Shown here: positions 1 to 6,000 of the stretch, one piece after another
How positions within the stretch are numbered: the first letter of the stretch is position 1
Layout: every line of letters begins with the position of its first letter
Source of the DNA: Ferruginibacter sp.
Lineage (GTDB): Bacteria; Bacteroidota; Bacteroidia; Chitinophagales; Chitinophagaceae
Reading direction: 5' to 3'
DNA length: 64,000 nucleotides
Assembly (NCBI GenBank): GCA_030831945.1
Contig: JAURKC010000006.1
Coordinates: forward strand, 65,364 to 129,363
Made by a program: the position numbers

Positions 1-3000
1 AATAATGGTGTAAAAAAAGGAGATCGAGTTTGTATCTATATGGGCATGGTGCCTGAGTTAGCTTATGCAGTTTTGGGATGCGCAAGAATTGGTGCAATAC
101 ACAGTGTTATATTTGGTGGATTCAGTGCGCAAAGTATTGCTGATAGATTAGAAGATGCGCAAGCAAGCTTTATTGTTACTTGTGATGGCGCCTACAGAGG
201 CGGAAAAGATATTCCACTAAAAAGTGTCATTGATGATGCTTTGATTGGAAATAAGACGGTTAAACGAGTGATTGTTTATACCCGAACGCGTACGCCTGTT
301 TCAATGATTAAGGGAAGAGATGTGTGGTGGGAAGATGAAATGGAATATGCAGAAACGCAGATTGAGAAAGATGGGGTAGTATCTTTTCCTGCAGAAGAAA
401 TGGACGCAGAGGATCCGTTGTTTATTTTATACACTTCAGGCTCTACAGGCAAACCAAAGGGAGTTGTTCATAGTGTGGCGGGGTATATGGTGTGGACTAA
501 CTATACTTTTGTAAATGTGTTTCAATATCAACCAGGTGATATCCATTTTTGTACAGCTGATATTGGATGGATTACTGGGCATAGTTATATTGTGTATGGT
601 CCATTAAGCGCAGGTGCTACTTCCTTGATGTTTGAGGGTATTCCCACCTGGCCAGATGCAGGACGCTTTTGGGACATTGTTGAAAAACATAAAGTAAACT
701 GCCTATACACTGCGCCCACGGCTATTCGCAGCCTAATGACTTTTGGAACTGAACCCATCAAAGGAAAAAATTTATCTTCCTTAAAAATATTAGGAACAGT
801 AGGCGAACCGATCAATGAAGAAGCTTGGCATTGGTATGATGAAAATATTGGTCAAAAAAAATGTCCTATAGTGGATACTTGGTGGCAGACAGAAACGGGT
901 GGTTGTTTGATCAGTAACCTTGCTGGCGTTACTCCAGCAAAAGCTAGTTGGGCTACTTTACCCTTACCCGGAGTACAACCCTTACTAGTAGACGAAAAAG
1001 GAAATGAAGTAACTGAAAAAGATGAGAACGGATTAATGAAAGGTAATCTTTGTATGAAAGCACCTTGGCCAGGAATTTTAAGAACAACCTATGGTGATCA
1101 TGAACGTTGTCGCACTAATTATTTTGCCACCTACCCCAATTTATATTTCACCGGTGATGGTGCCTTAAAAGATGACAATGGATTTTATCGCATAACAGGT
1201 AGAGTAGATGATGTACTCAATATTAGCGGACATAGAATAGGAACTGCTGAAGTTGAAAACGCGATCAACATGCATGCAGGAGTGGTAGAAAGTGCTATAG
1301 TAGGCTATCCGCACGATATTAAAGGGCAAGGAATTTATGCCTTTGTAATTTATAATGGTCATCATGGAGACGAAGCACTTCGCAGACAAGATATTAGTTT
1401 AACAGTCGCTAAAATTATTGGCCCTATTGCAAAGCCTGATAAAATTCAGTTTGTATCTGGACTACCCAAAACAAGAAGTGGAAAAATTATGAGAAGGATA
1501 TTGAGAAAAATTGCGGAAGGTGAAATGGAAAACTTGGGAGATACTTCTACCCTATTGGATCCATCAATAGTAGATGAAATTAAAAATGGTAAAATATAAA
1601 TTCAAAAAGGGTAGGAAGAATTAAAAATATTTTGGTTAACTAATTTTCAACAATGCATCCCAAAGAGATTTCAATTCTTGATTACACCTATGATTTACCT
1701 GAAGAAAGAATTGCTGACTTTCCAATTGCAGAAAGACAGGATGCAAAGCTTTTAATTTATCAAAAAGGGGTTTTACAAGAAGATCAGTATAAAAATATTG
1801 CCAACTATCTACCTGAAAATAGTTTACTAGTTTTTAATGATACTAGAGTTATCCAAGCAAGATTATTATTTAAAAAAGCTACTGGCGCAAGTATAGAAAT
1901 TTTTTGTCTAGAGCCTTATGATACCATCAATGAATACAATGTATTGATGGCAAAAAAAGAAAGTATTCAATGGAAATGTTTGATAGGCGGTGCCAATAAA
2001 TGGAAAGAAGGGAATTTAATAAAAGAGGTTTTTGTTCAAGGCGAAAAAGTAGCATTAGAAGCGCAGTTGATTGAAAAAATTACAGATGCCTATATTGTGA
2101 AATTTTCCTGGAAGCCTACTCAGCTTAGTTTTGCAGAGATCATTGAGCAAGCTGGCGATACCCCATTGCCGCCCTATATTAAAAGAAAACCAATTGATTC
2201 CGACAAAGAAAGATACCAAACTATTTATGCCAAGCAGGATGGTTCGGTAGCGGCACCTACTGCTGGACTTCATTTTACGCCCTCTATATTTTCATCATTC
2301 ACTAATAAAAATATTCATACAGCATTCGTTACGCTACATGTAGGAGCTGGTACTTTTAAACCAGTAAAAGCAGACTTGCTTAAAGATCATCCTATGCATG
2401 CGGAATGGATAGAGGTAAGTGCTGAAACTATTCTTCAGCTAATTGAAAATTTTAACAACGGTATCATTGCTGTTGGAACTACTGCGCTAAGAACATTGGA
2501 AAGTTTATTTTGGATGGGAGTAAAAGCATCTCTCAATCCGAACGCTCAACTAGCCGAACTAATGATTCATCAGTGGGATGTGTATGAAGCTCCTCTAAGC
2601 AATTGTTCACTCAATACTCCAACTGCTCTCGAAGCGCTAGTAGAATGGATGAAAAAAAATAATTGTAATAGAATCCTTTCGCCCACACAAATATTGATTG
2701 CTCCAGGTTATCGATACCGATTGGTAAAAGCAATTATAACTAATTTTCATCAGCCCCAATCAACCTTATTATTGCTAGTGGCAGCCGCTATTGGAAAAGA
2801 TTGGAAGAAAGTTTATCAGTTTGCTTTAGAAAATGATTACCGATTTCTAAGTTATGGTGATGGGAGTTTGTTGTTTTTGAATAGTAAAGATGAAATGACT
2901 TCATTTTAAAAATTACCAATTGCTTAACCTGATTCCTATTGTATATGGTTTCAATACCAATCCTTTACTGAATATAGAATTCGGGCTGTAGGAACCATAG

Positions 3001-6000
3001 AGTCTTACAGGACCTAAACCCATTTCTGCTATATAAGATAATTTAAATCTTTCCAAATCATAGTCGCCGCGGTTTTTTTCTTTACCTCTTTCTTCACTCT
3101 TCTGCTTATTTCGAACACCATATAAATAGCCTGCACTAAGCCCCATGCTAAGGCTAAGTCCTTTTTTTGAGTTAGCTGAATTAGTTATAAAATTTAACAT
3201 CAAAGGAACAGTGATATAATTTAATGCTAACTTATTTTTAGAAAAACTAATGGAGTCTCTGATAACTACCGGAGAGGGTGCCTGAAGACTGTTGAGATAG
3301 GAGTTTTTCTCAAGATAACTCAAGTTGGAAGAAGTTTTATATCGATAATTATCATACTCAATCCCCAAGCCATACTTTAGATTCACATTTTTTTTGATTA
3401 AATTAATTCGCTGCATAAAAAACCAAACGTTTACATTTAGACTCTTTCCAGTATTGAGATTAAAATCGCTTTTTCCGAGAGGTGCTGCTCCTTGTCGGTT
3501 ATAAAGATAATTACCTGTGTTGCCATAATCAGTTTTGTCTATATAATTTGAAAAGCCAAAATCAAAAACAAACCAATTGGTACTCACCTTAGAAAAGGTC
3601 TTTCTCGAACTTTTGCTTCTAAAAATAATTTTACTATGACCTCCTTCTGTTTTATCCTCATATTTTATAATTTCAATTTTGCCAATACGAACTGTATCCG
3701 TTTGTGTAAATACCCTATTGGTATCGGATTGTGCAGTAACAAAAAGGGATGTAAATAGCAGTGTTAGCAGAGGTAATAGCTTTGTTGTATTCATTTGATT
3801 AATTGTTTTAACGTAAAGTGATTTCGAAATTGGCAACCTTAATTGTATTAAGGATATTTTGATTATGCGATCTTTGCTCTAAAGTTTTTTTAACTTTTGC
3901 AAAAAATCGCCCCGATAAGATTCTTTTTAATTTTTGTTCCCCGATAAAAAAAATCTGGTTATTATTTTCAGTACCATCTTCTTCATTAGAATTATTCATA
4001 TCTAACCTTTGATCAACTAACTGTTGATCAGCAATTAGTTTGAGGCCTAGTTCATTTGATCTTTTCACTAGTTCTTTTTCTAGCATTTCTTCATTATTGG
4101 GTTCAATATTTTCTTCTTCATAATTAACCTTGTTAATTATGCCAAGCAACTCGCTTTGTGAATTACTCAGATCGAGTATTTTTTCAGTTCTACTTTCTGC
4201 TGATAAAATTATTGGTTTTTCTATTTTTGAAACTGAAAAAATGGATAAATCATCTGCAAAGCTTGATGGAAGTGCAGTGGCACTCTTATTTTGCTGTTCA
4301 ATCGGTAATCTTTTTAATTGACGGCCATAGGGGTTGCTATTTTTTTTAATTTCACCTGCTATGAATTTATTTTCAATATTCGGTATTGCTTGATTGCTAA
4401 TGTTTGAACTGGAATTCAAATACATCAATACTCCCCACAATCCAACACCTACTAAAATAGCTGCTACTAATAAGTTCCTCCATGGTAAAAAAACTAATCT
4501 GCGTTTTTCGGTTCTATATAAAGATTTTTTATCCTCATAAACTATTGCACTTTCAGGAAATAGTTTAGCAGATTGTATCATGTTCCACTCCTCTGAAACA
4601 GATTTACTAGATTTTATTAAATTAGTTATTTCATTTTTTTCAACTTCGTTTAATTCATTGTCTAAACACAATAATAATTTCTCTTTTACATCAGACGACA
4701 AAGGCTCTTTTTTGTATAAGCTCATTTTTTTATTCAACAAAATATCATCCTTTTGTAAAACTGTTTGAAATAACATAGCCAACTCTTCTCCCAAATCGGG
4801 ATTCGATTGTACAAATTCATCCACGCTGTTTTTTTCTACAGCCGACAATTCATTGTCGACATATAATAAAAAATAGGTTTCGTAATTATATCTATTGATG
4901 TTACTCATGGTTTAATTTAAAATTTAAGCGCTAAAAGAATGGAAAAAATAAATTGTCATGTCACATTCTCCGGTTTTACAATAAACGATTTTAATTTCAA
5001 CCTAGCCCGATGCAAGTAAACTTTTACTTGACTAGCATTGAGTCCGGTAATTTTACCTATCTCCTCATAATTATATCCTTCATAATCCTTTAGCAACACT
5101 AAGCTTCTTTGTACTTCATCTAATTGACTTAATGCTTCGTTTAAAATTCTTTTCACGTCTGGAATTGGCTGCTGCGTAATTTTTGAGCTCTCGCTAAAAT
5201 CTTCTTTTAATATAACGCGTTTATTTTTTCTAATATGATCAATCATCTGATTATAGGCTACTGTAAACAAATAGCTTTTGCTTCGAAGATTGTCCACATG
5301 ATCACGATTCATCCACATTTTTTCAAAAGCCCCTTGTACAATATCCTTCGCATCAGCTTCATGCCGCAGATTCTTGAAAATAAAGCGATACACATTATCA
5401 GCATACAAGTTTACGCACTGATTGTACTCATTTTCGGTCATGCAAGTTTTGATAATGGGTGAATGCTAATTAAGTTTACTTAAACCTATACGTTTGGGCT
5501 AATAAAAAGTTACAAAAGTATTTAGAAAAAGGACTAAATAATATTTTAGTAATCAAATCCCAGGAATGAAGTAAGTATCTTACTTTCAATTAAACATTAA
5601 TCGCACCAGGATATCGATACCAAGTGGTAAAAGCAATTATAACTAATTTTCATCAGCCCCAATCAACCTTATTATTGCTATTGGCAGCCGCTATTAGAAA
5701 AGAAGAGGAGAAATTATATCAGTTTACTCAAGAAAACCACTACCGCTTTCTTAGTTATGGTGATGGGAGTCTACTTTTTTTAAATGATTTGCAAGAGGCA
5801 ACTTATTTTTGAACTATTGCTGAATCACAACTGGAATGCGCATAGATATAAAATATATAGATCTTTCATTTCAGATTATTTTACTACCACAAAACCATCT
5901 ATTCAATTGTAAATTCTCTACTTAGGCCTAGTCCAGTAGTAACGCATAGGACTATTTTGGATTAATTTTTTTAGATGACAGTAAAATTTCGCTTAGTTGT

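Follow-up and report, generated by a model that had tools for sequence, protein, structure and literature searches.

Crossover of the RecA type between direct repeats loops out and deletes the DNA that lies between them. Related sequences of one genome can also overwrite each other: in Neisseria, gene conversion takes place between pilE and the silent pilS copies, and the omp2a and omp2b genes of Brucella reportedly undergo gene conversion and concerted evolution. Finally, the "minimal mobile elements" of Neisseria are blocks of genes between conserved flanks that are swapped by homologous recombination without mobility genes (PMC3787668). Here we describe a locus of Ferruginibacter sp. (Chitinophagaceae) in which the 3' end of a queA gene occurs on both sides of a 2.9-kb block. 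This block, hereinafter the cassette, contains the genes of an outer-membrane beta-barrel protein (barrel 1), an anti-sigma-like protein and a sigma factor of the extracytoplasmic function (ECF) type. The locus lies in a stretch of 64,000 nucleotides (nt) of contig JAURKC010000006.1, which we call the window. The genome of the window (2.85 Mb) is designated G000, and other L and G numbers denote loci and genomes of its relatives. We estimate at about 75% the probability that this locus is a hotspot of homology-driven recombination and gene-content change and not a site-specific mobile element.

A repeat search in the window revealed a direct repeat of 194 nt (2689-2882 and 5592-5785), with 86% identity between the copies and a spacing of 2903. 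In the alignment of the extended copies (2689-2909 and 5592-5812) there is an exact run of 56 nt, and 70 of 71 positions are identical when the adjoining stretch is included. This confirmed the starting observation of the original prediction, which had been made from the sequence of the window by eye. The first copy is the end of the working queA gene, whose stop codon is separated from that of barrel 1 by 3 nt. The second copy, which we call the relic, is open from 5597 to the TGA at 5810-5812, and in the window it has neither a stop nor a frameshift, as had been noted; in relatives, the copies are partly broken. It is 77% identical to QueA residues 348-418 and is followed by barrel 2, orf172, kbl and lutB. 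The two convergent barrels, described earlier as about half identical, share 50% of their residues over 258 amino acids (aa). The whole G000 genome contains just these two copies of the repeat and just these two barrels.

The same gene order is present on contigs from ENA ERZ27296389, ENA ERZ28594054 and JGI 3300021962, and two Logan contigs cover barrel 2. In these independent assemblies, which come from other samples, the arrangement is kept at 97.9-99.96% identity. It is also found in other species (G024, L080, L083, L108). SRR7130817 and SRR7130819 are likewise among the samples containing the species of the window. An assembly artefact of the G000 genome, named in the original prediction as the outcome that would overturn it, is thus ruled out, and we give this explanation practically no chance.

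Relatives were collected by searching for barrel 2 in public proteins and contigs, and all loci were turned to the orientation of the window. It turned out that they form four arrangements. In type A (L070, L071, L073), the order is queA, ldt (a gene of a YkuD-type L,D-transpeptidase), barrel 2, orf172, barrel 1, anti-sigma gene, sigma gene and kbl, and there is no relic. Type C (L076, L078, L080, L108) has queA, barrel 1, anti-sigma gene, sigma gene, relic, intact ldt, barrel 2, orf172 and kbl. Type D includes the window, strain L061, G024 (the same as L082) and L083; it is organized as type C, with ldt decayed or gone. In type B (L074, L075, L081, L084, L109), queA is directly followed by ldt, decayed ldt or barrel 2, and then by orf172 and kbl, with neither cassette nor relic. 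The left junction of the relic, where the sigma-upstream region is joined to queA codon 346/347, is common to all genomes that carry a relic. Using the anti-sigma proteins of L076 and L078 as queries, we found no longer contigs carrying the queA of these two loci.

The original prediction held that recombination between the two cores would leave an intact queA with an alternative C-terminus next to barrel 2. Such a product was found in L074/L075, L081, L084 and L109. The queA genes of type B have a relic-type tail (LND[L/*]QE...) joined to ldt and lack the queA-type tail (LNS[KT]DEMTS[FI]) that is joined to barrel 1. These hybrid genes are still open and encode 411-418 aa. The type B locus L074 and the type C locus L076 encode an identical barrel 2 protein and are 98.5% identical over 4,928 nt; the homology of L074 and L075 to L076, from which they differ by 1.5% over this length, starts at queA codon 346. 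In L084, queA is of the queA type until its last codons and then acquires a tail of the G024 relic type (NSTQEMTSF), which abuts barrel 2 just as the relic of G024 does. L109, the nearest to the window by barrel 2 (95% identical), is queA-specific upstream of the repeat and then matches window positions 5597-6660 without gaps at 93.7% identity, including the decayed ldt. The queA tail of L081 is also relic-type. The crossover points differ between L074, L084 and L109. In the barrel 2 tree, the included type B lineages are located in three different subclades, next to relatives of types C and D. A sigma orthologue was absent from the whole genomes holding L084 and L081 (G437 and G438); these are metagenome-assembled genomes, in which an absence is strong and not absolute. 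Each of the type C/D genomes G439-G441 has exactly one sigma orthologue. The simplest reading of these data is that several independent queA-relic crossovers would each have removed about 2.9 kb, leaving a hybrid queA with the relic tail and causing the loss of the sigma factor in several lineages. We infer that this deletion is RecA-dependent. The TAG codon in the tail of L074 was considered as proof of the direction of change and dropped, as it would be shared by descent under either direction.

We also assessed what the second copy is and why it has stayed similar to queA. The original prediction had seen a bias toward synonymous changes between the copies and had derived the fragment from another functional queA allele. 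The bias is real, but it is weak: the queA and relic of the window differ by 16.8 synonymous and 23.2 non-synonymous changes, which gives an omega (non-synonymous to synonymous rate ratio) of 0.30. The queA orthologues of G000 and G024 give an omega of 0.095 over their full length and of 0.025 over the 3' end (Fisher p = 0.008). This contrast fits one constrained and one unconstrained lineage and not a second functional allele. Furthermore, the relic is frameshifted or carries stops in four of the eight relatives: G024 and L083 have lost 10 bp of it and L080 has lost 4 bp, whereas the relic of L076 is interrupted by three in-frame stops. With an omega of 0.30 against 0.03-0.10 for orthologues and with broken copies in these four loci, the origin from another functional allele did not hold up. 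Judging by these comparisons, the second copy is a decaying relic of queA. The His in "YQHAL" was tried as a marker of the relic and dropped, since the working queA of L108 has it too.

The persistence of the relic could alternatively mean that it is functional, either by encoding a peptide of 62-71 aa or by terminating transcription or insulating the sigma operon from barrel 2, downstream of which the operon lies on the same strand. Its frame is indeed open in G000, L061 and L108, it has persisted across lineages whose queA genes have a synonymous divergence (dS) of 1.6, and it is placed between barrel 2 and the sigma promoter region, with barrel 2 and the sigma operon both on the minus strand. 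A function is hard to reconcile with the four broken copies and with an omega that greatly exceeds the values of functional queA. A search of 5597-5812 revealed no terminator-like site, and cassette-less genomes lack the relic without any replacement. We therefore regard a functional relic as very unlikely.

The similarity of the copies is better accounted for by conversion. The duplication is older than the split of G000 and G024 (the queA dS of 1.6 mentioned above), and dS between the paralogues within a genome is only 0.51. Within genomes, the copies are 81-91% identical, with exact runs of 25-91 nt that differ between genomes. Comparison of the two major clades gives an identity of about 78% for queA and of 70-76% for the relics. 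When all copies are placed in one tree, the relics fall with queA from the same lineage (split 100/100), and the two copies of L108 are sisters (99/93). The most direct evidence comes from strain L061, which is 97.9% identical to the window over 9 kb and has an identical queA. At 17 consecutive sites of its relic (5696-5771), L061 has the queA letter where the relic of the window differs, and relic-specific sites remain on both flanks. The converted tract is thus 76-91 bp long, and the exact queA/relic run in L061 reaches 91 nt. It is L061 that carries the recent conversion, since the version in the window shares old relic characters (ACT, CGC) with the relic of G024. This indicates that it is gene conversion from queA that keeps the relic queA-like. 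Comparison of the lineages shows that such conversion repeatedly overwrites parts of the relic and thereby keeps the exact runs between the direct repeats.

The cassette and its flank have different histories. In the tree of sigma and anti-sigma, L078 groups with L076 (100/99). In the tree of barrel 2 and orf172, L078 groups with L108, and L076 is outside (100/100). Each data set rejects the grouping of the other (approximately unbiased (AU) test, p = 0.0014 and 2.6e-5), with the tested groups having been named only after the trees were seen. The identity of L078 to L108 is about 88% through anti-sigma, sigma and relic, and once ldt is reached it increases to 93-100%. The discordant trees together with this step in identity indicate that cassette alleles have moved between lineages by homologous recombination. 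Double-crossover replacement would explain the conflict of the trees, and re-integration of a circle by a Campbell-type crossover fits equally well.

This leads to the question of whether the cassette is reversible. The looped-out circle, consisting of a hybrid repeat with barrel 1, anti-sigma and sigma, could be taken up by cassette-less cells and re-integrate by a single Campbell-type crossover in queA; populations would then lose and regain the module without an integrase. Such re-integration predicts a relic with an old decayed 5' part and a 3' part equal to the queA of the recipient, and the relic of L076 has a decayed 5' half and a 3' half identical to the queA of L074. L074 and L076 share the barrel 2 protein and differ in cassette content, and the breakpoint between the conflicting cassette and flank trees is at the relic/ldt border. 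A ComEC-family gene at 20603-21412 of the window, pointed out in the original prediction, is also in line with uptake of DNA. However, deletion combined with ordinary double-crossover allelic exchange yields the same patterns. ComEC-family genes are present in 10 of 14 control genomes and are thus not diagnostic of competence, and we know of no report establishing natural transformation for Ferruginibacter. Therefore, a module that is lost and regained in this way seems to us unlikely. It is just as doubtful that the queA/relic pair serves as an integrase-free reversible docking site whose repeat is kept usable by gene conversion. If this were true, lake populations of Ferruginibacter would trade an envelope-signalling module by homology alone.

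To understand where the cassette came from, we compared the locus with about 15 other members of the genus. In these genomes, queA is followed by a convergent YkuD-type ldt of about 195 aa. Extra genes come next in some of them, and then the barrel, anti-sigma and sigma genes, which are encoded on the opposite strand, and finally kbl and lutB. There is one barrel per genome, and it is always nearer to barrel 1 than to barrel 2. Because this order recurs, the sigma/anti-sigma/barrel operon between queA and kbl is ancestral. By synteny and tree, barrel 1, the last gene of the sigma operon, is the orthologue of the single barrel of the genus. In the tree, the type A barrel 1 (L070) is the sister of its orthologues from types C and D (support 100/98), the single barrels of the genus join this group, and the deep branching of barrel 1 agrees with that of the lineages. 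Thus, the cassette was inherited vertically and moved within the locus. The idea that the sigma module is an inserted foreign cassette had to be abandoned, as the module is ancestral at the locus across the genus and barrel 1 is orthologous to its counterpart on the kbl side in a relative.

The DNA behind the relic is consistent with such a move. Using tblastn, we identified pieces of a decayed ldt (RIYN*IDGFVVVK*SEMKDLY and KKINPK*SYALLLD) in the window, and the DNA of 5855-5972 matches the region directly 3' of queA in five relatives. An intact ldt, an open reading frame (ORF) of 198 aa, is present in L074, L076, L078, L080, L081 and L108; in relatives, it is convergent to queA. No other ldt orthologue was found in G000, where the best other match is 25% identical. 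Since the ldt remnant sits behind the relic, the relic, the decayed ldt and barrel 2 preserve the ancestral order of queA, ldt and barrel. We suggest that in the ancestor of a Ferruginibacter subclade a duplication-mediated rearrangement brought the operon of sigma, anti-sigma and barrel 1 from its place beside kbl to one directly behind queA. This would have left a 5'-truncated queA 3' end before the old downstream neighbours, namely the YkuD gene, barrel 2 and orf172.

The layout superficially resembles a classic island integrated by an integrase into the 3' end of queA, in which the second copy would be a displaced remnant of the att side: the gene 3' end is duplicated across a block and shares an identical core. 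This explanation is highly improbable. The ORFs in 2913-5596 are only the barrel, the anti-sigma-like and the sigma genes, and ORF and domain searches revealed no recombinase in or beside the block, which bears out the earlier remark that no integrase is present. The cargo was already present in the ancestor of the genus, and its deep branching agrees with the species tree. There is no fixed att core, as the exact cores vary in place and length between genomes, and the crossover points also vary among the deletion forms.

Several points weigh against the reading of the locus as a recombination hotspot, in addition to the choice of groups for the AU test. The comparison of the locus across relatives, proposed earlier, showed cassette-less forms in related lineages and none in the window's own species, for which all five assemblies are occupied. 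The cassette-less contigs are metagenome assemblies, and L109 is a contig of 1.3 kb with about 2x coverage; for L109 and for L074/L075, some chance remains that contigs were wrongly joined through the repeat. Besides GCA_947502735.1, the cassette-less lineages include the metagenome-assembled genomes with the contigs CAMBTV010000256.1 and JBIKOV010000013.1. Parsimony is the basis of the direction assigned to each presence/absence difference, and some occupied forms (e.g., L076) could be re-gains, because integration of a circle would rebuild the same junctions. The route from the kbl-side arrangement to the present one is not reconstructable, as the intergenic DNA at the breakpoints is too diverged. 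A pattern scan of JGI metagenomes for the intact or deleted junctions of the window's allele gave 0 matches, including for the intact form, and is therefore uninformative.

The features of the locus are listed in Table 1.

Table 1. Features of the queA locus in the window (G000)
Feature	Coordinates	Strand	Evidence and remarks
Long queA paralogue, 418 aa	1653..2909	+	PF02547, E 1e-99; NCBIfam QueA equivalog NF001140, 350 bits
Repeat copy 1, last 72 codons of queA	about 2689-2909	+	direct-repeat search
Exact core of the repeat, 56 nt, copy 1	2722..2777	+	partner 5625-5680; alignment, exact-run count
Barrel 1, outer-membrane beta-barrel, 293 aa from ATG	2913..3794	-	PF13568; synteny; tree
Anti-sigma-like membrane protein, 366 aa, one hydrophobic span	3808..4908	-	conserved position between sigma gene and barrel across the genus
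ECF-type sigma factor, 161 aa	4956..5441	-	PF04542, PF08281, PF07638
Conserved sigma-upstream region	5442..5596		alignments; right end is the junction to the relic
queA' relic (repeat copy 2), 5'-truncated copy of queA codons 347-418	5597..5812	+	alignment; PF02547, E 3.5e-17
Relic stretch replaced by queA sequence in strain L061	5696..5771	+	17 sites; tract 76-91 bp
Decayed YkuD-type L,D-transpeptidase (ldt) remnant	5855..5972	-	tblastn pieces; DNA matches in five relatives
Barrel 2, 287 aa, paralogue of barrel 1	6041..6904	-	lacks the N-terminal DT[IV]RIG..I[IV]K segment
orf172	7474..7992	+	always accompanies barrel 2

Sigma-70 regions 2 and 4 were recognized by Pfam in the sigma factor. Its nearest NCBIfam model, NF058625 (the GFO_1088/PG0214 family), scores 111.5 bits, which is under the cut-off of 130. 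The anti-sigma-like protein and the product of orf172 have no match among Pfam or NCBIfam profiles. The anti-sigma-like gene contains an internal duplication (4634-4677 and 4829-4872): in the N-terminal part of the protein, a segment of the type L.DNEL...EK, about 45 aa long, occurs twice. A segment of about 35 aa (DT[IV]RIG.I.I[IV]K...), which directly follows the signal peptide in barrel 1 and in all single-barrel orthologues, is missing from barrel 2. Barrel 1 may signal to the anti-sigma factor through this segment. Upstream of barrel 2, a 9-bp hairpin followed by a T run (7065-7085) resembles a terminator of the minus strand. Three substitutions are clustered in it (7066, 7073 and 7078) in further assemblies from this strain-level population. 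A small inversion at 7066-7078 was tested and rejected.

The genome has a second queA of the canonical form of about 350 aa (G000:C3:85928-86968), which is about 33-39% identical to the long form, and both forms are present in nearly every member of the genus that was searched. A look-up of the exact QueA protein of the window returned no record. The long QueA is highly variable in its final 4-8 residues, and in some lineages single changes shorten it there (L083 ends in NNSKR* and L074 in LND*), so that the extreme C-terminus of QueA seems to be dispensable. Of 401 genomes of the order, 197 were found to have the long-type C-terminus. We surveyed these 401 genomes for a second long-type queA 3' end, and seven of them gave two matches. 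Five of the seven were fetched, and their second match was not within 10 kb of queA and is probably the canonical queA. Local duplicates were found in this survey in G000 and G054 only; that of G024 came from a separate search. In G054 (L034), which belongs to another family, a gene of a 399-aa Fic-domain protein (HPFGNGNGR) is located between queA and a 48-codon copy of its 3' end. The copy differs by one residue and is followed by a tRNA-like stretch (L034 4789-4926, 5069-6268 and 6397-7605). By its layout, G054 is an independent case of the same arrangement. Past lutB, the neighbourhood differs as well: L074 (GCA_947502735.1) has a toxin-antitoxin-like AbiEii/DUF6088 pair at 313-1945, and the window instead has Laminin_G_3 genes.

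Compared with the described systems, the locus resembles direct-repeat deletion in that repeats of about 216 nt flank the lost block, one hybrid repeat is kept, and the crossover points vary. It differs in that one repeat is the 3' end of a working gene, so that the deletion produces a hybrid, still open queA. The other repeat is a relic, which would decay beyond use if it were not refreshed by gene conversion. As in the conversion between genes and silent copies known for omp2a/omp2b and pilE/pilS, the copies are closer within a genome than orthologues are between lineages, and contiguous tracts are copied that differ between strains. Unlike in those systems, the working gene is the donor here and the relic the recipient. 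Except for the hybrid tails arising from deletion, nothing indicates that queA is diversified by the relic. The dead gene fragment survives and remains able to recombine, since it is copied over again and again by the living gene.

As in minimal mobile elements, gene content varies among close relatives at a fixed site, there are no mobility genes, and the block and its flanks have different histories. The host, in contrast, is an environmental member of the Chitinophagaceae, and the duplication of one flank provides an additional, intragenomic way of losing the block. With integrative islands in gene 3' ends, the locus shares the succession of a gene, a block and a truncated copy of the gene 3' end. 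It departs from such islands in lacking an integrase, in having ancestral and not foreign cargo, and in its variable crossover sites. For annotation, finding a gene 3' end on both sides of a block does not suffice to call the block an island. The ECF sigma/anti-sigma/barrel module has become, with no mobile-element machinery, a presence/absence polymorphism of wild freshwater bacteria. The locus opens no new kind of system and combines known recombination processes: a single pair of 216-nt repeats appears to join three ordinary outcomes, namely gene conversion, direct-repeat deletion and allele exchange between lineages.

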